Source of the DNA: an uncultured Candidatus Actinomarina sp.
GTDB lineage: Bacteria > Actinomycetota > Acidimicrobiia > Actinomarinales > Actinomarinaceae
DNA length: 64,000 bases
NCBI GenBank assembly: GCA_902510995.1
Contig: CABXDL010000001.1
Coordinates: 49,457 to 113,456, forward strand
Reading direction: 5' to 3'
A program made the translations under genes and the position numbers. A model generated the notes under the pieces. That model made no database searches. It saw nothing but the letters and a program-made list of their open reading frames with translations, and was not told the origin of the DNA. Below are positions 11,268 through 60,874 of the stretch, one piece after another; the stretch's first letter is position 1; each line of letters begins with the position of its first letter.

Positions 11268-12518
11268 ATGTTAGATTCACAAATATTAAAGAATAATCTT
11301 GAGGAATTTAATGAAAATTTGAAGAAGAGAGATATCTCTATTGATGTGAGTCTCTTAATAGATCTTGATGAAAATAGGAGAAAGGCGAAATTTGAAGCTG
11401 AGCAGATAAGAGCTGAGCAAAATAAATTAGGCAAAGAGATTGCAAAAGCTGACAAAAATGAAAAACAGGAACTTTTAAAAAAAGCATCAGAGTTAAGTAA
11501 TAATTTCAAGAGTTTATCGGAAAAAGCAGAAGAAGAAGAAGAAAAGTTTTTAGACCTATGGATAAAAATACCAAATATTATTGATGCTTCTTCTCCTGTT
11601 GGTTCCACAGATGAAGACAATAAAGAAATTAAAAAAATTGGAGAGGTTAAAGAATTTAAGAATCTAAGGGATCATTTAGAGATCGGAGAGACATTAGGTC
11701 TAATTAACGTTGAAAAAGCTGCAGAAGTTTCTGGTTCACGCTTTTCATACATTTTTGGTGACTTAGTAAAGATTGAATTCAACTTAGTTTCTTATGTTAT
11801 GAATAAGCTTTCTGATAACGGCTTCCTTCCAACAGTTCCCCCAGTTTTAGTTAGAGAAAATGCACTATATGGTACAGGATTTTTTCCTGATGATGCAGAG
11901 CAGGTATATAAAATACAAAATGACGAACTATACCTTGTCGGTACATCAGAGGTATCTTTAGCTGCCTTACACGGTGATGAAATACTAGAATTTGATTCAT
12001 TACCATTAAGGTATGCTGGTTTTTCAACATGTTTTAGAAGAGAAGCAGGAACTTATGGTAAAGACACAACAGGAATATTTCGAGTTCATCAGTTTGATAA
12101 AGTGGAAATGTTTTCTTTTTGTGATCCAGAGAAATCAAAAGAAGAGCACGAATATCTTCTAACTGTTGAAGAAGAGATATTAAACGATTTAGAAATACCA
12201 TACAGGGTTGTAGATGTCTGTTCAGGCGATTTAGGAGCTTCTGCGGCAAAAAAATATGATATAGAAGCTTGGATGCCTAGCCAAAACAACTATAGGGAAG
12301 TAACCTCTTGTTCTAACACAACAGACTATCAAGCTAGAAGGCTAAATATTAGGACAAAAAAAGACAAGGATACATCACTAATTCACACCTTGAATGGAAC
12401 AGCATTGGCAGTTGGAAGAATCTTGATAGCGTTAATTGAAAATAATCAACAAGAAGATGGTTCTGTAGAGTTCTCAGACGAACTTTCTAAGTTAACAGGT
12501 GTAAAAAAACTAAGCTAA
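11268..12518 (+). CDS. serS: Seryl-tRNA synthetase
   Basis: N-terminal coiled-coil arm plus class II aaRS core motifs. 416 aa. Confidence 0.9.
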   Translation: MLDSQILKNNLEEFNENLKKRDISIDVSLLIDLDENRRKAKFEAEQIRAEQNKLGKEIAKADKNEKQELLKKASELSNNFKSLSEKAEEEEEKFLDLWIKIPNIIDASSPVGSTDEDNKEIKKIGEVKEFKNLRDHLEIGETLGLINVEKAAEVSGSRFSYIFGDLVKIEFNLVSYVMNKLSDNGFLPTVPPVLVRENALYGTGFFPDDAEQVYKIQNDELYLVGTSEVSLAALHGDEILEFDSLPLRYAGFSTCFRREAGTYGKDTTGIFRVHQFDKVEMFSFCDPEKSKEEHEYLLTVEEEILNDLEIPYRVVDVCSGDLGASAAKKYDIEAWMPSQNNYREVTSCSNTTDYQARRLNIRTKKDKDTSLIHTLNGTALAVGRILIALIENNQQEDGSVEFSDELSKLTGVKKLS

Positions 12519-13584: not shown

Positions 13585-13673
13585 GGAGGGATCGCATAGT
13601 CTGGCCTAGTGCGCACGCTTGGAAAGCGTGTAAGGGTTTATCCCCTTCGAGGGTTCGAATCCCTCTCCCTCCG
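13585..13673 (+). tRNA. tRNA-Ser (anticodon GGA)
   Basis: Long variable arm. Anticodon loop UUGGAAA. Acceptor GGAGGGA/UCCCUCC. Confidence 0.8.
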
Positions 13674-13692
13674 CAAAAAATAATACCTTTTA

Positions 13693-13778
13693 GGAGGGAT
13701 GGCCGAGCGGACGAAGGCGATAGTCTTGAAAACTATTGTATGTATTCCATACCGTGGGTTCGAATCCCACTCCCTCCG
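13693..13778 (+). tRNA. tRNA-Ser (anticodon TGA)
   Basis: Long variable arm. Anticodon loop CUUGAAA. Confidence 0.8.
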
Positions 13779-13785
13779 CAAACTT

Positions 13786-13877
<92 letters not shown>

Positions 13878-13878
13878 A

Positions 13879-13952
13879 GCGCCTGTAGCTTAACTGGATA
13901 GAGCATCTGATTACGGATCAGAAGGTTGGGGGTTCGACTCCCTCCGGGCGCG
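13879..13952 (+). tRNA. tRNA-Arg (anticodon ACG)
   Basis: UAGCUUAACUGGAUAGAGC D-arm and anticodon loop UUACGGA. This is the TadA substrate. Confidence 0.8.
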
Positions 13953-13961
13953 CTTTTATTA

Positions 13962-27649: not shown

Positions 27650-29716
27650 TTACAGATTTCTTGAGGAGTTAAACACAACTGAAATACTAGAAGCAGCCAT
27701 TGCTAACGCAGCCATATTTGGCGATATATTTCCCGTTATAGCAATTGGTATCATTGCTGTGTTATAAATAAAAGCTAAGAATAGATTCTGATTTATTCTT
27801 TTTTGAGATTTTTTTGCTAGATCAATTATGTCAATAATTTTAGATATATCGCCTTTATGAATAATTATGTCTCCAGCACTCTGTGCTATTTGGGTACTAT
27901 GTGAACTTGCTATCCCTACATCAGCTTGTTTCAAAGCAGGCGAATCATTAATTCCATCTCCCACAAATGCAACCGTATTGTTTATTTGTTTTTCTTTTAC
28001 ATATTGAACTTTATCTTCAGGCATCTGACTTCCAATAGATTCCGAAACTCCTAAAGATTTTCCAAAATCCTGAACTTTTTTACTACTATCTCCTGATAAG
28101 ATTGAAACTTCGTAACTATCTGAAAGAGTATTTATAAATTGAGAATTAATCCTGACTTCTTCTTCTAGTTCTATAGAAAACATATTTTCATTTATCTTTA
28201 CATCCAAGATAGTTAAAGTACCCTCATTTACGGAAGCTTTTTTTATAGATACTTTTTTCTCATTTACTTTTCCTTCAACACCAACTCCTTCTTTTTCGAT
28301 GAAATTCTCTACTTCAAATAGGGGTATATTTTTATTTTCTGCTTCAAGCAATATACTTTTTGCAATTGGGTGGTTGGACTTTTGTTCTAGGCTTGCTATA
28401 TATTGCAATACTAAATCTGTGCTTCCTCCGTTTTTAGGGATAATTGCTTTAATCTTAAAAACACCAGTTGTTATTGTTCCAGTTTTATCAAATATAATGG
28501 TTGTCACTTTTGTAAGCTTTTGTAAGTAATCAAAATTTTTAAATATAAAACCTTTTTTATTGGATATAGAAGCTGACCTAAAAAGGACTATTGGAATTGC
28601 TAAACCTAAAGCGCAAGGGCATGCAATAACAAGAATAGATATAGTTATCTTTAATGCTACAAAAGTTTCTTGCTCAAAATAAATTAACCTCATGAAAAAA
28701 GTGAACAAACTAATAATAAGTACAGTAGGTACAAAAATTTGAGTCACTTTATCTATATTTTTTTGAACGGAGGGCTTTGTTGTTTGAGCTTTAAATATCA
28801 TATCTTCAATTAAATTAAAAGTCGTTTCACCACTTATTTTTGATACTTTTATTTTTATTTCGCCAGTAAGATTTATTGTCCCCGCTATAACTAAGCTATC
28901 TTTATTTTTTTCAACAGGAACTGATTCACCTGTAATAATACTTTCGTCAATAGTTGATGCTCCTGTTTGTATATGGCCGTCTAAAGGTATAACTTCTCCT
29001 GGAAGAACAACTATTTCTTCATCTTTTGATATTTCATCTATATTTTTCATTACGTATTCCCCGTTATAAACTCTTACATCTTTAGGGATTAGCTCTAAAA
29101 GGGCTTCAGATATTTCTACCGAAGATTTAATTGATACTTCTTCAATAGTTTTTCCAATTAATATAAATGAAACAATATACGCACCTGTTTCAAGAAACAT
29201 TAAGGGTTGTTTTGTTGATAATATGGCAAAAATGAAAGAAGAAAGACTACCAATTGAAATCAAGGTATCCATATTAAAGCTAAGTCTCATTAGATTCTTT
29301 ATTGCAGATATGTGAAATTTATAGCCAAACACAAAAATTACAACTATAGCGATACTGATTGCTTGAATTGTAAAACCATTCTCAATAAAAAGTGGTTTTA
29401 GAAGTATTGTTAGTATTAAAGATAGAACAGGTTTAATAAATTTTGTTACTTTCTTTTCGTCAACAATGTTTTCTTCGAATACAACTGCTGAATAGCCAAT
29501 TGATTTAATTTTTTTAATAACCTTATTCGTATCAATAGATTCATGAAACTCTACAATAGCTTTTTTCAATGGGAAATTAACTACCGCAGTTTTTATTGAA
29601 GCTTCTTTATCTAAGACTCTCTCAATTCTTGATGCACAGGCAGCACAGGTCATTCCCTCAATTGAGAGAGTTAGAGGCTTCCCTTCATTCGACAACTGTG
29701 TAACCATGATCGTCAA
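27650..29716 (-). CDS. copA: Cu+-translocating P1B-type ATPase
   Basis: N-terminal HMA domain (GMTCAACASRIE), CPC in TM6, DKTGT phosphorylation site, GDGINDSPAL hinge. Confidence 0.9.
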   Translation of the reverse strand: MTIMVTQLSNEGKPLTLSIEGMTCAACASRIERVLDKEASIKTAVVNFPLKKAIVEFHESIDTNKVIKKIKSIGYSAVVFEENIVDEKKVTKFIKPVLSLILTILLKPLFIENGFTIQAISIAIVVIFVFGYKFHISAIKNLMRLSFNMDTLISIGSLSSFIFAILSTKQPLMFLETGAYIVSFILIGKTIEEVSIKSSVEISEALLELIPKDVRVYNGEYVMKNIDEISKDEEIVVLPGEVIPLDGHIQTGASTIDESIITGESVPVEKNKDSLVIAGTINLTGEIKIKVSKISGETTFNLIEDMIFKAQTTKPSVQKNIDKVTQIFVPTVLIISLFTFFMRLIYFEQETFVALKITISILVIACPCALGLAIPIVLFRSASISNKKGFIFKNFDYLQKLTKVTTIIFDKTGTITTGVFKIKAIIPKNGGSTDLVLQYIASLEQKSNHPIAKSILLEAENKNIPLFEVENFIEKEGVGVEGKVNEKKVSIKKASVNEGTLTILDVKINENMFSIELEEEVRINSQFINTLSDSYEVSILSGDSSKKVQDFGKSLGVSESIGSQMPEDKVQYVKEKQINNTVAFVGDGINDSPALKQADVGIASSHSTQIAQSAGDIIIHKGDISKIIDIIDLAKKSQKRINQNLFLAFIYNTAMIPIAITGNISPNMAALAMAASSISVVFNSSRNL

Positions 29717-30255: not shown

Positions 30256-30492
30256 ATGGAAATCAAACTAGAATTCTGTGTAGTCTGAAACTACACACCC
30301 CGTGCAGTTAGTACGGTTGAAGACATTTTAGAAAAATATGGTCAAGAAGTGAAATCTATCGACTTAATACCTACTACAGGTGGCAAATTTGAATTTTATT
30401 TAAATGGTGATTTGCTCTATTCAAAAATAGAAACAGATAGACACACTGAAGACGGAGAGATACTAGGTTTAATCGAAAAAGCGCTTAGTTGA
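30256..30492 (+). CDS. SelW/Rdx-family selenoprotein with in-frame UGA (Sec) at 30286..30288
   Basis: The translation MEIKLEFCVVUNYTPRA...TGGKFEFYLNGDLLYSKIETDRHTEDGEILGLIEKALS has a CxxU motif followed by NYxPRA. A SECIS-like hairpin at 30300..30316 sits 11 nt after the UGA. Confidence 0.6.
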
Positions 30493-52301: not shown

Positions 52302-53093
52302 ATGAATAATTTGGATATACACATAGTAGGTCTAGGAAACCTTGGTTCTGCACTTTTGCAGGGTTTAATTAATCTAGATAAAAACTTAACATTTCATCTT
52401 TATGAAAAAGAAACAAAAATTATTGATTTTATTAAAAAACAATTTGAGCTTGACCCAAAAACAGAGATTGATGTTATTGAAAATGGAGTTCTTGTTCTCT
52501 GTATTAAACCAAAGGATTTAAATCTTTTTATAAAGACAAATAAAGAAAAGATTTCAGAAGATGTATTAATTTGTACAGTATTAGCTGGTGTGAACACATC
52601 GTATATATCAAAATTTATTAATAATAAAATCATTCGTCTTATGCCGAATTTATCTATAAAAGATAACAATGGTTTTATTCCATATACAAAAAATTATGAG
52701 AAAGATTATTTATCATTTCTTGAAGTACTCAACGGTCTAGGATCTATATCTGAATACGACGAAGAATTATTTCATATAATTACATCAATATATGGAAGTG
52801 GCCCAGCTTGGTATCTAGAACTTTCTTCAAAGATTGTGGAGGCTGCTTTAGAATTAGGACTTTCTAAATCAGAATCAAACAAAATCGTAAAGGAACTTAT
52901 AAAATCTCTACCAGCATTAGTCAATGAAGAGGAGTTTAGTGATACTGTGGAGAAAATAAAATCACCCAAGGGTACAACAGAGGCAGGTATCAATTCGCTT
53001 AAGCATGATTCTTTTGATAAGATTATTTTCAACGCAATCAATTCTGCAACAGAAAGATCAATGGAGATATCAAAAGAAATTAACAATGAATAG
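52302..53093 (+). CDS. proC: Pyrroline-5-carboxylate reductase
   Basis: N-terminal GLGNLG Rossmann motif and C-terminal SPKGTTEAG. Confidence 0.75.
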   Translation: MNNLDIHIVGLGNLGSALLQGLINLDKNLTFHLYEKETKIIDFIKKQFELDPKTEIDVIENGVLVLCIKPKDLNLFIKTNKEKISEDVLICTVLAGVNTSYISKFINNKIIRLMPNLSIKDNNGFIPYTKNYEKDYLSFLEVLNGLGSISEYDEELFHIITSIYGSGPAWYLELSSKIVEAALELGLSKSESNKIVKELIKSLPALVNEEEFSDTVEKIKSPKGTTEAGINSLKHDSFDKIIFNAINSATERSMEISKEINNE

Positions 53094-55245
53094 CCAGAAA
53101 AAAGATAGACAAGTAAATGATTATGTTTTGTTATTTTCAGCAGGGGCAGCACTTGGAACATTATTCTTATGGGGAGCAAGCTATATTTTCCCAGAAGGAG
53201 AAATAGTAGAAGGTAGAAGAGTATTTGAAAATATACCAAAGTATCTCCAATATTTGTTCTATTTACTTAGTGCTTCTTCAGTTTTCATCTGTGGTTATTT
53301 ATTCTCTTTAAGAGCTAAGAACTGGTCAAGAGGTACTGAAGAAAAGAGAAAAGTAAAGCTAAGTCAAAGAATTATAAATTTATTTGACGGACTTCTAATG
53401 AAGACATTACTTAGATTTAAAGCTGCTGGATTAATGCATTCAATGATTTATATTGGCTTTTTAGGATTGTTTGCTGGGACAATAACTCTCGAAATACATC
53501 ATTTAATGCCACCATCATTAAAATTCTTACAGGGCACTACTTATCTAGTTTATTCATTTGCATTAGAGCTCGCTTCCTTGGTCTACTTAGGAGGTATAGC
53601 TTGGGCTTTATACAGAAGAATTTTTGGTACAGAAGATAGGCTAAAAACTAAAACTAAGATGGATGATTATTTGACTCTCCTTCTTCTAGGATTTATGGGT
53701 CTGTCTGGTCTAACTACTGAAGCTGGAAGAATCATAGTGGAAGGCTTTCCTAATTATGAAAAATGGAGCTTTGTAGGTTATTTCATTGCAGAGTTATTAC
53801 CTATAGAAAGTGGTGTTATATTTCATAGAGTTTCTTGGATACTGCATGTAGCTTCATTCTTTGTGTTTTTAATTGTTCTTCCTCAGTCCAAGCTACGTCA
53901 TATTGTGACTTCACCTGTAAATATGTACCTGAGTCCAAATGAAAGACCAAAAGGAGCTATGAAAGATATAGGCAACCTTATGGAGCTAGAAGATATAGAC
54001 ACTGTAGGAGTTGAACTTATTGAAAATTTCACTTGGAAACAACTTGTAGATTTAGATGCTTGTACAGCTTGTGGTAGATGTACATCGGTTTGCCCTGCAA
54101 ATTTAACAGGTAAGCCATTAGATCCAAGAGAAATAATTCTTAAAGTAGGACAAGTAATGTCAGACACTGGCGATCCACCTGTACCTTCTACAGTAACTAC
54201 ACCGATTGATCTTAAAGTAAAAGCTTCGAGTGTATTTGAAAGAGTAACGCCAGAAGAGTTATGGGCTTGTACTTCATGTAAAGCTTGTGATGAAATTTGT
54301 CCTGTAAATATTGAAATATTGGACAAAATATTAGACATGAGAAGACACCTCGCATTAATGGCTTCGGATTTTCCAACTGAGCTAGGGAAGGCTTATGTTG
54401 CAATGGAGAATTCATCAAATCCTTGGGGTGCTTCACAGAATGACAGAATGAAATGGTCAGAAGATTTAGATTTCGATGTCGCCCTATTAGAAGAAAATAA
54501 CAAAGAAGAAGTAGAGTATCTTTACTGGATTGGATGTGCAGGAGCATTTGATGATAGAAATATTCCCGTTACTAAAGCAGTAGCAACTTTACTTAAAAGA
54601 GCAAATGTATCATATGCAGTTTTAGGTCCAAAGGAAATATGTACAGGTGATTCAGCAAGAAGAACAGGAAATGAGTTTGTATTTCAACAACTTGCAATTC
54701 AAAATATTGAAAACATGAACAATCTGAATGTTAAAAAAGTCATAACTCAGTGTCCTCATTGTTTCAATACTATTGCTAATGAATATCCTCAATTAGGTGG
54801 AAATTTTGAGGTAATTCACCATAGCCAATTATTAACGGAACTTGTGCAGTCTGGGAAAATAGAAGTTGGAAACGCTGAAAAGCCTTACTCAATTACATAT
54901 CATGATTCTTGCTATCTGGGTAGGCATAATGACATTTACACAGCACCAAGAGAAATAGTAGGATCTATCGGAGGCATAGAGATTAGAGAAATGAAACGCC
55001 AAGGAACCAAAAGCTTTTGTTGCGGTGCTGGTGGCGGAAGAATGTGGATGGAAGAGAATACGGGTAAGAAAGTTAATATAGAAAGATCTCAAGAAGCAAT
55101 AGACACAGGAGCAGATGAAGTTGCTGTAGCCTGTCCTTTTTGTTACATTATGATGGACGACGGAGTTAAAGAACTCGGTGAAGGAGATAACGTTAGAGTT
55201 CGTGACGTATCCTTAATTTTGTTAGACAACTTAAAGAAAGATTAA
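53086..55245 (+). CDS. Membrane-anchored Fe-S oxidoreductase (heterodisulfide-reductase/GlpC-like; Rv0338c-like)
   Basis: N-terminal TM domain, two CxxCxxCxxxCP ferredoxin motifs and C-terminal Cys-rich CCG repeats. The start was set at ATG 53086, overlapping the proC stop. Confidence 0.75.
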   Translation: MNSQKKDRQVNDYVLLFSAGAALGTLFLWGASYIFPEGEIVEGRRVFENIPKYLQYLFYLLSASSVFICGYLFSLRAKNWSRGTEEKRKVKLSQRIINLFDGLLMKTLLRFKAAGLMHSMIYIGFLGLFAGTITLEIHHLMPPSLKFLQGTTYLVYSFALELASLVYLGGIAWALYRRIFGTEDRLKTKTKMDDYLTLLLLGFMGLSGLTTEAGRIIVEGFPNYEKWSFVGYFIAELLPIESGVIFHRVSWILHVASFFVFLIVLPQSKLRHIVTSPVNMYLSPNERPKGAMKDIGNLMELEDIDTVGVELIENFTWKQLVDLDACTACGRCTSVCPANLTGKPLDPREIILKVGQVMSDTGDPPVPSTVTTPIDLKVKASSVFERVTPEELWACTSCKACDEICPVNIEILDKILDMRRHLALMASDFPTELGKAYVAMENSSNPWGASQNDRMKWSEDLDFDVALLEENNKEEVEYLYWIGCAGAFDDRNIPVTKAVATLLKRANVSYAVLGPKEICTGDSARRTGNEFVFQQLAIQNIENMNNLNVKKVITQCPHCFNTIANEYPQLGGNFEVIHHSQLLTELVQSGKIEVGNAEKPYSITYHDSCYLGRHNDIYTAPREIVGSIGGIEIREMKRQGTKSFCCGAGGGRMWMEENTGKKVNIERSQEAIDTGADEVAVACPFCYIMMDDGVKELGEGDNVRVRDVSLILLDNLKKD

Positions 55246-57296: not shown

Positions 57297-59003
57297 GTGG
57301 GTACAAAAAAAATACGAATAACTGGTGCACAATTATCTTTTTCAGTTGGGGCAATTCAAGAAAATAAGTCAAAAATTTTAAACACCTTAGAACAAGCAGA
57401 AAAAATTAATTCAGATATAGTTGTTTTTCCAGAACTCTGCATTACAGGTTATCCTCCTGAAGATTTACTTTTAAGAGAAAGCTTTGTAGGAAAAAATTTC
57501 GCAGTTTTAGAAGAGATTGCAGAGTTTTCTGGTAGAACAAGCGGGATAATTGGTTTTGTAGATAGAAGCCTAGAAGAGCAAACAACAGATAATGTTGATA
57601 GAAAAATTACTAATGCAGCAGCAATAGTTCAGAATGGTGATGTTAAAGGAATTTATCATAAATGTTATCTACCAAATTATTCAGTATTTGATGAAGCCAG
57701 ATATTTTGCAAAAGGAACAAAACCAGAAGAAATATTTTGGTATGAGGATGTAGGCGTAGGAATAAATGTATGTGAAGATATCTGGATTGATGAAGGTCCA
57801 GCAGAAGAACAAGTTAAAAGAGGAGCCTCTTTAATAATAAATATAAATGCTTCCCCATTTGATATAGATAAAACTAAATCAAGAAAAGAAAAAGTAATTC
57901 ATAAAGCTAAGAAACTAAATGTTCCGATAATTTATTTGAATATGGTTGGGGGGCAGGACGAGTTAGTTTTTGACGGAGGCTCTTTTGTTGTTGATTCTGA
58001 TGGAAATATAATTCATGAAGCATCTCAATTTGTTGAAGAAGTATTTAGTTTTGACATTGACCTAGAGATCAAAGATATAAATACAGAAAATAAACTTATA
58101 ATAAATGAAAAAAATTCCGATATACCTTCAATCGAAAGTACAAAACCCTTAGAAGAACTTGAATCAATGTATTCTGCCTTAAAACTTGGGTTATCTGATT
58201 ATGTTAGAAAAAATAAGTTTAAAAAAGTTCTAGTAGGTATTTCTGGAGGAATAGATTCTGCCTTGACAGCTACGATTGCAGTTGACTCCTTATCTTCAGA
58301 GAATGTTATTGGAGTTGCCATGCCATCAAGATTTAACCCAGAGTCCTCTCTAAAAGACGCAGAAGCTTTGGCAAAAAATTTAAATATAGAGCTAAAGACT
58401 ATAAATATTGAAGAAACTGCTGAAAAATTTAGAGAACTTATAGGATCAAATATTGATGAGAGCTTAGAAAGTGTTGTGAAAGAAAACATACAGGCCAGGA
58501 TAAGAGGCAATATATTGATGGCTTTGTCAAACCAGTTAGGAGCAATGGTTGTTTCAACAGGGAATAAATCAGAAATGGCTGTTGGTTACTCAACTTTATA
58601 TGGTGATTTAGTTGGGGGTTTCGCCTTATTGAAGGATGTATATAAAACAGAGGTTTATAAACTTTCTAATTATAGAAATTCAATCTCAAAGGTAATACCA
58701 AAAAATATTATTAGTAAAAAACCAAGTGCCGAGCTTAGTGAAGATCAATATGACTCTGACACACTTCCAGAGTATGACTTACTAGACAAAATATTGAAGA
58801 TGTATATAGAGCTTGATTACTCATCTGAAAAAATAATAAAGTCGGGAATTGAAAAAGATGTTGTATTTGATATTCTTGAAAAAATAGATAGAAATGAATA
58901 TAAGCGTAAGCAAGTTGCTCCAGGTGTAAAATTAACGAGTAGGGCTTTTGGAAAAGACAGAAGAATGCCTATAACAAATACCTACATAAGAGATCGGTAC
59001 TAG
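57297..59003 (+). CDS. nadE: Glutamine-dependent NAD+ synthetase
   Basis: N-terminal CN-hydrolase domain plus C-terminal NAD synthetase (SGGIDS P-loop). Confidence 0.9.
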   Translation: MGTKKIRITGAQLSFSVGAIQENKSKILNTLEQAEKINSDIVVFPELCITGYPPEDLLLRESFVGKNFAVLEEIAEFSGRTSGIIGFVDRSLEEQTTDNVDRKITNAAAIVQNGDVKGIYHKCYLPNYSVFDEARYFAKGTKPEEIFWYEDVGVGINVCEDIWIDEGPAEEQVKRGASLIININASPFDIDKTKSRKEKVIHKAKKLNVPIIYLNMVGGQDELVFDGGSFVVDSDGNIIHEASQFVEEVFSFDIDLEIKDINTENKLIINEKNSDIPSIESTKPLEELESMYSALKLGLSDYVRKNKFKKVLVGISGGIDSALTATIAVDSLSSENVIGVAMPSRFNPESSLKDAEALAKNLNIELKTINIEETAEKFRELIGSNIDESLESVVKENIQARIRGNILMALSNQLGAMVVSTGNKSEMAVGYSTLYGDLVGGFALLKDVYKTEVYKLSNYRNSISKVIPKNIISKKPSAELSEDQYDSDTLPEYDLLDKILKMYIELDYSSEKIIKSGIEKDVVFDILEKIDRNEYKRKQVAPGVKLTSRAFGKDRRMPITNTYIRDRY

Positions 59004-59006
59004 AAA

Positions 59007-59834
59007 ATGTATTTAATTAATGGAAAAGAAGTTAAAAAAGAGGACTTCAGTATTCCTGTTCAAGACTTAGTAGTCTGGCGAGGCGATGGAATTTTTGAAG
59101 CTATAAGAATTCACGGAGGCTTTTTATTTGCACTAGAAAAGCATATGGATAGATTTAAGAACTCTGCAAAAAAAATGTATTTTGAAAATATTGATTTTAA
59201 TAAAATACAGCAAGATTTAATTAAATTAGCTTCAAATTTTGATACCGGTTATGTCAGAGTAATAATTGGTCGTGGTGTTTCTGTAGATGAATTTAATGTA
59301 TATATTTTTCATCAAGAAACAGTTTCTTTTCCTGAATCTTATTCCTTACAATCACAGAAAGCACACTGGATGGCAGGTGGGGATTTTGGAATAAACGAAA
59401 TCCATAACATAGCAGCAAAAACAACTTCTTATGCAATGAATATGAACGAAACAAGACTTGCTGAGAAAAAGGGATTTACAGATGCTTTATTAGTAAACAG
59501 AGAAGGAGTAGTGCTTGAAGGTCCATCATTCTCAATAGGCTGGGTAAAAGAAGGTAAAGTTTTTGTTCCTGATTTAGATCTTGGAATATTAGATTCTGTA
59601 ACTAGAAGGTGTTTAATTGAAATTGGAGAAAGCGGGGCATTTGACATAGAGGTAGGGAGAATATCAATTGATGAACTTTACAAAGTTGATACAGTTTTTG
59701 TTTTATCTACTGCAAAGCATGCAATCTTTGTTAAAAGAATTGATGAAGCAGAGTATTCAGAAGACCCTCTTGTCGGCGTGATTAAAGATTCTTTTAAAAT
59801 AGAAATCGAAAAAGAAAAGAGTGGAAAACTTTAA
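59007..59834 (+). CDS. Class IV aminotransferase (BCAT / aminodeoxychorismate-lyase-like)
   Basis: Class IV PLP-dependent fold pattern, 275 aa. Confidence 0.7.
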   Translation: MYLINGKEVKKEDFSIPVQDLVVWRGDGIFEAIRIHGGFLFALEKHMDRFKNSAKKMYFENIDFNKIQQDLIKLASNFDTGYVRVIIGRGVSVDEFNVYIFHQETVSFPESYSLQSQKAHWMAGGDFGINEIHNIAAKTTSYAMNMNETRLAEKKGFTDALLVNREGVVLEGPSFSIGWVKEGKVFVPDLDLGILDSVTRRCLIEIGESGAFDIEVGRISIDELYKVDTVFVLSTAKHAIFVKRIDEAEYSEDPLVGVIKDSFKIEIEKEKSGKL

Positions 59835-59848
59835 GACTAGGAGGTGCA

Positions 59849-60874
59849 ATGAGGCTAACTCAATACTCTCACGGCTCTGGCTGAGCTTGTAAACTCGCAC
59901 CAAGCGAGCTTGCTCAAGTTTTGAAGCAATTTGAACAACATAAAGCACTAAAATCTGAAAACTTAATTGTTGGTTTAGAAAACCCAGATGATGGTGGAGT
60001 GATCAACATTGGTGAAACAAAAATTATACAAACTGTAGATTTCTTTACACCAATTCTCGACAATCCTTATGACTGGGGAAGAGTTGCAGCTGCTAATGCC
60101 TTGTCTGATATTTATGCAATGGGAGGAGATCCTATATCTGCACTTCAACTAGTTTGTTGGCCCAGAGAAGATATAAGTTTTGATATCTTGGCTGAAGTGA
60201 TTAATGGAGGCCTTGACGTTATGGGTGAAGCAGGTTGTACCGTTATTGGTGGTCATAGTATTGACGACAAAGAACCGAAGTATGGTTTTTCCGTAACAGG
60301 AGTAATAAAAGACAATCCATTACTTAACAACAGCATTTCAGATAAAGACAAACTATATATTACAAAACCACTAGGCACAGGAATCATTGCAACAGCAATA
60401 AAAAAAGACATGGCTTCAGAGGAAGAAATCCTAGAAGCTACAAATAACATGGTTGCATTAAATAAAAATGCACTTAAGTTTGCAAAAGATAATAATGCAA
60501 ACGCACTCACAGACATAACTGGTTTCGGATTACTTGGTCATTTAACAGAAATGATAAACGGGACAAAGCTATCAGCAGTTATAAATTCAGACAATATTCC
60601 AGTAATTAAGGGAGTACATGATCTTCTTAATAAAGACATTTACCCTTCAGGGAGCGAAAGAAACCTAGCCTCTATAAAAGATAAATTAATATATGAAGTT
60701 GAGGAAGAGAAAATTAAAATATTTTGTGATGCCCAAACAAGCGGAGGTTTGCTAATTTCACTACCCGATAAAGGAAATATCAACCTTAAAGAAGCAAGAG
60801 ATAATTACGGAATTGATATCTGGGAAATAGGCGAAATAACTACACAATATAATGAAAAGATAAATATTATTTAA
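59849..60874 (+). CDS. selD: Selenide, water dikinase (selenophosphate synthetase), Sec-containing (UGA at 59882..59884)
   Basis: AGGAGG RBS, then ATG 59849 and the translation MRLTQYSHGSG-U-ACKLAPSELAQVL. This matches the SelD active-site motif, in which E. coli has Cys. The ORF track starts only at 59921. Confidence 0.85.

Follow-up and report, generated by a model that had tools for sequence, protein, structure and literature searches.

Where does the selenophosphate synthetase gene selD begin in an uncultured marine relative of 'Candidatus Actinomarina', and what does the TGA codon that interrupts its 5' region specify? The stretch analysed here (hereafter, the window) comprises 64,000 nucleotides of contig CABXDL010000001.1 (assembly GCA_902510995.1), and its track of open reading frames (ORFs) starts selD at a TTG codon. 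The preliminary description of the locus had placed the true N-terminus of the protein upstream of that ORF, at an in-frame ATG behind an AGGAGG motif, with a single TGA interrupting the extended frame. Each of these elements was found exactly where it had been placed (Table 1), the TGA being codon 12, and the upstream N-terminus is borne out by a coding signature and by a family profile match that begins at the profile's own N-terminus. Judged from the sequence comparisons below, selD in this window is almost certainly a selenoprotein gene, with its start 72 bases upstream of the tracked ORF and a UGA for selenocysteine (Sec) in the active-site loop. A second question is which RNA structure would serve as its selenocysteine insertion sequence (SECIS), and here a hairpin other than the one first described is probably the better candidate.

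The N-terminus of SelD and its in-frame UGA

Reading through the UGA adds MRLTQYSHGSG*ACKLAPSELAQVL to the front of the tracked 317-residue ORF, for a total of 341 codons before the TAA stop at 60872-60874. When this product was compared with SelD families, with U entered as C, it scored 378.9 bits on the NCBIfam model TIGR00476 (selD; cut-off 125), residues 2-307 aligning to profile positions 1-308 of 311; because the alignment starts at profile position 1, the N-terminal extension belongs to the family profile. The score on PRK00943 was 350.4 (cut-off 299), and PF00586 and PF02769 are recorded on homologues. The protein also aligned end to end with Escherichia coli SelD (3u0o; E = 3.4e-81, query residues 1-331 on chain residues 6-335). 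In that alignment MRLTQYSHGSG-C-ACK lies residue for residue on IRLTQYSHGAG-C-GCK (residues 6-20), so that the UGA falls on Cys17, as the preliminary description had proposed, and the following Lys on Lys20. Both of these E. coli residues we take to be catalytically essential, on the strength of mutants in established SelD biochemistry. The glycine-rich loop HGSG-U-ACK, the counterpart of HGAG-C-GCK in 3u0o, is present only if translation starts at 59849 and the UGA is read through. Further along the chain the PurM-like domain motifs PDDGGV (with its DD), TVDFF, NALSD and DITGFGLLGH are kept relative to E. coli SelD; the roles of the acidic and ATP-site residues in these motifs are known from the literature.

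Although the N-terminal motif RLTQYSHG(A/S)G-C/U-(G/A)CK is nearly identical in the two proteins, E. coli SelD differs in having Cys in place of the UGA-encoded residue, five extra N-terminal residues, and following codons that are free of a hairpin constraint (VLETIL, compared with LAQVL here). Aquifex aeolicus SelD (2ZOD/2YYE) aligned with E = 7.5e-67 and has ...SSG-C-AAK at the same place; the crystallised protein is presumably a Sec-to-Cys variant. The SelD proteins of A. aeolicus and Haemophilus influenzae likewise carry Sec in the glycine-rich N-terminal loop, with the UGA early in the gene, but they belong to other phyla and share about 40% identity or less with the protein described here (for H. 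influenzae, the preprint 10.64898/2026.04.03.716425 cites Guimaraes et al. 1996).

Relatives were collected by scanning one genome per species for protein similarity and translating the region upstream of each selD match. The nearest of them belong to 'Candidatus Actinomarina', the OCS155 cluster and other Acidimicrobiia, with protein identities of 57-86%. The preliminary description had left room for homologues without a conserved upstream region or a Cys/Sec loop at this position, and the relatives proved otherwise: all 23 Actinomarinales species representatives carry an in-frame TGA in the context HG(A/S)G*ACK at the same position. The same TGA occurs in six other Acidimicrobiia and in many Marinimicrobia/Fidelibacterota, Clostridia, Nitrospirota, Dehalococcoidia and others, and Cys occupies the position in Pseudomonas, Nocardioides, Nocardioidaceae, Brachybacterium and Microbulbifer. 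A metagenome search with a pattern permitting TGA, TGC or TGT at this codon returned TGA in 96 of 96 matches; the pattern also demanded the downstream hairpin sequence, so that a Cys variant lacking that sequence would escape it. The genome scan, being based on protein similarity, carries no such bias towards the hairpin, and likewise yielded no Cys variant in Actinomarinales. No Cys-codon selD was thus seen in the order among the 23 species representatives and the 96 metagenome matches.

The region between the ATG and the UGA evolves as coding sequence. Across 36 distinct Actinomarinales sequences, codons 2-11 differ from those of the window by 187 synonymous and 44 non-synonymous changes, with variation at each of the ten third positions. 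If the 27 nt preceding the start codon are also read in this frame, the differences number 14 synonymous and 333 non-synonymous. The start codon itself is ATG in 61 (53%), GTG in 36 (31%) and TTG in 18 (16%) of the relatives, and 116 Actinomarinales-type sequences have the GGAGG core at an unchanged distance from it. At the level of sequence, this pattern is the hallmark of translation that starts at 59849 and runs across the UGA. The class IV aminotransferase gene upstream of selD ends at 59834, leaving an intergenic gap of 14 nt with the ATG start versus 86 nt with the TTG start.

These data bear directly on the possibility that the TGA is a genuine stop, selD being either a pseudogene or the source only of a truncated SelD beginning at the TTG. 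The ORF track agrees with such a truncated form, as do 75 of the best 120 database clusters of selD homologues, in which the protein is 317 amino acids long (316 in one of them). We nevertheless regard this explanation as very improbable, given that purifying selection conserves the TGA, together with its ten preceding codons, across the order and beyond, that a conserved Shine-Dalgarno sequence and start codon lie 33 nt upstream of the TGA whereas no Shine-Dalgarno sequence precedes the TTG, and that the truncated protein would be without the Sec/Cys-Lys loop assumed above to be essential. The TTG is the first start-type codon 3' of the TGA, and the tracked 317-residue ORF arises artificially when UGA is taken for a stop.

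The other 45 of the best 120 clusters hold proteins of 341 amino acids, and all 13 of these forms that were retrieved read GSG-W-ACK, with Trp at position 12, as would be expected if UGA encoded Trp under genetic code 4 or 25. This explanation is extremely improbable. The window has a G+C content of 32.9%, and TGA ends 10 of its 47 reading frames of at least 200 codons, which indicates that the standard bacterial code is in use; among all the SelD proteins examined, the residue at the UGA position is either Cys or Sec and in no case Trp. Database entries for a second UGA-containing gene in the window, the SelW-like gene described below, are 84 amino acids long and read CVVW...ALSW plus five junk residues (ALSW-TFHST), the real TGA stop having been read through, and entries of this type are therefore gene-caller artefacts. 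The 341-residue Trp forms of SelD are the same gene called under code 4 on short, low-GC contigs. Public collections consequently hold selD either truncated (317 amino acids, no active-site loop) or mistranslated with Trp (341 amino acids), and hold the SelW-like gene mistranslated in the same way, which gives the corrected reading some value for annotation.

Table 1. Positions in the window of the selD elements and of the SelW-like gene with its hairpin; hairpin columns are counted from the U of the selD UGA (column 1 = 59882).
Feature	Position	Strand	Remarks
Shine-Dalgarno sequence AGGAGG	59839..59844	+	4-nt spacer before ATG
selD start codon ATG	59849..59851	+	exact onset of the coding signature
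Whole selD coding sequence with its TAA stop; 341 residues, Sec12 included	59849..60874	+	TIGR00476 match and E. coli SelD alignment
In-frame UGA (codon 12), read as Sec	59882..59884	+	aligns with E. coli Cys17
Hairpin H1, CUCGC-ACCAA-GCGAG	59894..59908	+	columns 13-27
Hairpin H2, UUGCUCAA / GUU loop (59918-59920) / UUGA(A)GCAA	59910..59929	+	columns 29-48; proposed SECIS core
TTG, start of the tracked ORF	59921..59923	+	actually encodes the Leu of AQVL; part of the H2 3' arm
SelW-like/Rdx gene, 78 amino acids, CVVU	30256..30492	+	Sec-UGA at 30286-30288; Pfam PF10262 Rdx, 58.9 bits
Hairpin CCGUGC-AGUUA-GUACGG	30300..30316	+	-8.2 kcal/mol; loop starts 17 nt after the SelW-like UGA

Two hairpins downstream of the UGA

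We propose that translation starts at the ATG behind AGGAGG and that, at the UGA, SelB·GTP·Sec-tRNA(Sec), held by an mRNA hairpin just downstream, would insert Sec instead of terminating. The product would be a 341-residue selenophosphate synthetase with the loop HGSG-U-ACK, with Sec where E. coli has Cys17 and a Lys equivalent to Lys20. Two hairpins, H1 and H2, follow the UGA. In the arrangement that we favour, H2 would be bound by SelB and H1 would act as a spacer or auxiliary helix.

Comparative evidence points to H2. Its loop is a Val codon and it carries a bulged A at 59925 (column 44). In 16 distinct Actinomarinales sequences H2 is 100% paired, with two pairs changed on both sides: CAA/UUG alternates with CAG/CUG, eight sequences against eight with zero mixed cases, and in one relative (L010) pair 33-43 is swapped from U-A to A-U. 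Column 42 is G in every Actinomarinales sequence found by protein similarity; among the Leu codons of the window's genes only 14.9% end in G, and only 2.9% are CTG. The test was extended across phyla with 67 distinct Sec-type selD sequences and the four core pairs of H2. Paired cells made up 93.3% of the total, versus 76.9% in shuffles; 43 cells were changed on both sides, versus 11.8 +/- 2.5 in shuffles; and the covariation score was 0.485, compared with at most 0.165 for slid partners. Across phyla, pair 33-43 is UA in 33 sequences, AU in 9, CG in 8 and GC in 8. One partner of this pair is the silent third base of an Ala codon and the other opens a variable codon, and its covariation is therefore not explicable by protein constraint. 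Loop positions G37 and U38 are nearly invariant in the same 67 sequences. In Cys-type selD the same columns are paired in 38.9% of cells, a set that is mostly Pseudomonas and so does not consist of independent cases.

According to the account of the bSECISearch criteria in PMC13188914, a bacterial SECIS has an upper stem of 4-16 base pairs capped by a loop of 3-9 nt, a G in the first two loop positions that is usually followed by G or U, a UGA-to-loop distance of 16-37 nt and a minimum free energy of -7.5 kcal/mol or lower. With its GUU loop (AGUUU if the closing A-U pair is open), four base pairs above the bulge and eight in all, H2 falls within the size limits; it has the expected G and U in the loop, and its loop is separated from the UGA by 33 nt (59885-59917). 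Measured against the bacterial SECIS model, that distance is close to the upper limit, and another hairpin, H1, lies in between.

Several observations weigh against H2. Folded alone, the window's copy is weak (-4.5 kcal/mol, short of -7.5, with a z-score of -0.5); the 50 nt after the UGA fold as a whole at -13.4 kcal/mol, but into a different structure, the single-sequence minimum-energy fold favouring H1 with a long lower stem. In relatives the energy of H2 is -6.2 kcal/mol where the pairing is CAG/CUG and -10 to -14 kcal/mol in high-GC Acidimicrobiia. Three of the four core pairs are partly dictated by the Gln-Val-Leu codons, and the choice between A/U and G/C pairs could track lineage. When 59700-60100 was searched against Rfam at a permissive E-value, the only matches were to small nucleolar and long non-coding RNAs and were at chance level, although the absence of a SECIS match is expected because bacterial SECIS elements are not modelled in Rfam.

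The 5-bp hairpin to which the preliminary description had drawn attention, H1, exists as given and begins 9 nt 3' of the UGA, but as a SECIS candidate it falls short, since it has no G in its loop and a UGA-to-loop spacing of 14 nt. That H1, alone or as the tip of a long stem including the UGA, is nonetheless the element bound by SelB, H2 being a by-product of the AQVL codons, is an explanation that we consider unlikely but take seriously. H1 is the most stable local structure in the window (-7.2 kcal/mol folded alone, z = -5.8 against shuffles) and tops the minimum-energy fold just mentioned; other phyla have a hairpin at about the same place (GGUCC...GGACC); and its loop lies 18-22 nt from the U of the UGA, close to the 21-25 nt of the SelW-like hairpin loop. 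The AGUUA loop of the SelW-like hairpin begins so soon after its own UGA that, on position alone, H1 is a live alternative. Its conservation argues otherwise. In the 16 Actinomarinales sequences 85% of H1 cells are paired, with one double-sided change, and pair 16-24 is mismatched in seven; the loop varies freely (ACCAA, ACCUG, CACAAAA or CAA), often without G or U. The long lower stem that the single-sequence fold places under H1 was rejected, as it shows zero covariation and its pair 6-36 is broken in 10 of the 16 sequences. Also discarded was a basal helix, UGAGCA:UGCUCA, that includes the UGA itself: it never covaries and is broken in L010, where H2 is compensated instead.

On the strength of the covariation, H2 rather than H1 is probably the SelB-binding element, and H1 is probably a spacer or auxiliary helix. 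A broader proposition is that Sec-type SelD is fixed across Actinomarinales and that its SECIS is a distal GUN-triloop hairpin over the Ala-Gln-Val-Leu codons, found in multiple phyla and set after a lineage-specific spacer hairpin; for this combined claim we judge the case to be evenly balanced. If it holds, the conserved 'LAQVL' peptide of Sec-type SelD would be partly an RNA constraint.

Sec-type selD genes of Nitrospirota (L064, L077, L078 and L080) are without the AQVL/GUN hairpin and have another stem about 17-35 nt 3' of the UGA (GGUCCAAAGGUUUUGGACC is one example), which implies more than one hairpin solution within a single gene family. A small CCAG-GUN-CUGG hairpin also lies over the Gln-Val-Leu codons of Cys-type selD in Pseudomonas (L052-L079), three codons earlier than in the Sec-type genes; it could reflect chance complementarity of CAG and CUG, or be the relic of a former SECIS.

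A SelW-like gene and the selenocysteine machinery

The preliminary description had mentioned a SelW-like call, and a SelW-like gene does lie in the window, with a match to the Rdx family (Table 1). Its product begins MEIKLEFCVV-U-NYTPRA, and the loop of the hairpin after its UGA contains GUU, as does H2 of selD. Because the stop codon of this gene is TGA as well, the triplet has two roles within it, Sec and termination. Homologues with 65-96% identity keep the internal TGA, and the Joint Genome Institute (JGI) name for them is 'selenoprotein W-related protein'. Apart from selD and the SelW-like gene, no convincing selenoprotein candidate emerged when every TGA in the window that joins two open segments was scanned. 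A heavy-metal P-type ATPase (27650-29716, minus strand) whose N-terminal domain has a weak match to a 'UxxU metal-binding (seleno)protein' model was rejected; it has an ordinary GMTCAAC (CxxC) motif and no in-frame TGA. SelW-like proteins (427 sequences) and SelD (357) were the most widespread selenoproteins in surface-ocean samples (PMC2398784). Both members of this pair, as described by Zhang & Gladyshev 2008 from Global Ocean Sampling (GOS) data, are in the window, and whereas those sequences were not assigned to organisms, here the two genes lie on one Actinomarina-related contig.

The searches for decoding genes count against the assignment of Sec. The six tRNAs that ARAGORN and Rfam detected in the window are all ordinary ones; tRNA-Sec was not among them. 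NCBIfam and Pfam scans detected no selA or selB among 30 window ORFs, which included 19 of the 20 of at least 350 amino acids (all but the 568-amino-acid ORF at 57297-59003, upstream of selD). Nor was tRNA-Sec, selA or selB found within 10 kb of selD at any Actinomarinales locus when 176 loci were searched with ARAGORN and with tblastn, the queries for the latter being E. coli SelA and SelB sequences. The method works, because the positive controls gave matches: selA, selB and tRNA-Sec adjoin selD in Clostridia loci, and selA and selB adjoin it in Actinomycetes loci, with tRNA-Sec in two of the three Actinomycetes loci. For this genome we infer selA, selB and selC from a preprint on the genus, in which selC, selA, selD and a divergent selB were reported in 84 of 84 complete Actinomarina genomes, with no selenouridine synthase and about five selenoproteins per genome (Nielsen & Lui, 10.64898/2026.04.03.716425). 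The case for Sec-decoding machinery here thus rests on that preprint together with the SelW-like gene in the window.

The lack of machinery in the window's own evidence would suit a Sec-independent read-through, in which a near-cognate tRNA inserts Cys or Trp at the UGA and the hairpins act as stimulators. There is a precedent in eukaryotic selenophosphate synthetases, where stem-loops beside the UGA promote non-Sec read-through (Mariotti et al. 2015, PMC4561486). We consider this explanation very unlikely for the present gene, in view of the reported universality of selA, selB and selC in the genus (10.64898/2026.04.03.716425), the presence of a SelW-like gene with its UGA in a canonical CxxU redox motif and a GU-loop hairpin of its own, and the fact that Sec-type SelD is the established bacterial reading of such a configuration.

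A serS gene in the window (11268-12518) lies about 1 kb upstream of a tight tRNA cluster (13585-13953) of three tRNA-Ser (GGA, UGA and GCU) and one tRNA-Arg, none of them tRNA-Sec. An ORF for a 746-amino-acid HdrD/GlpC-like iron-sulfur protein (53005-55245, plus strand) has a weak match to a 'dicluster-binding protein near Sec' model. It overlaps the end of a proC-like ORF (52302-53093) by 89 nt, and because of this overlap its real start is probably further downstream.

Sec-type SelD in Actinomarina

Knowledge of Sec-type SelD goes back to the 1990s, and examples from ocean metagenomes were catalogued in 2005-2008. For Actinomarina in particular, a Sec-form selD with an MRLT prefix was reported in April 2026 (Nielsen & Lui, bioRxiv 10.64898/2026.04.03.716425), so that a Sec-type selD with a miscalled start is a correct annotation fix that is already known for this genus. 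The genes of the preprint come from the same genus-level lineage and share the MRLT... N-terminus with one U, their products being 342-346 amino acids long compared with 341 here, and the truncation of selD by gene callers was likewise pointed out there. The preprint also made the point that a very abundant ocean bacterium with a streamlined genome of about 1 Mb needs selenium to make the very enzyme with which its selenium pathway begins, and the gene described here bears this out.

The two studies differ in how common the Sec form appears to be. In the preprint it was found in about half of the genomes, the remainder being presumed to have Cys, whereas TGA was present here in every species representative and metagenome match of the order. 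About half of the start codons are GTG or TTG (see above), and a predictor that groups sequences by their N-terminal prefix may have missed these, which might explain the shortfall. The Rfam-based search of the preprint returned no SECIS, whereas two conserved hairpins follow the UGA here. Our additions are small: a likely SECIS hairpin, the lack of any Cys variant among the sequences seen from the order, and a probable identity for the most abundant 'uncharacterised 78-aa' selenoprotein family of the preprint, which has the same length as the SelW-like/Rdx protein of this window.

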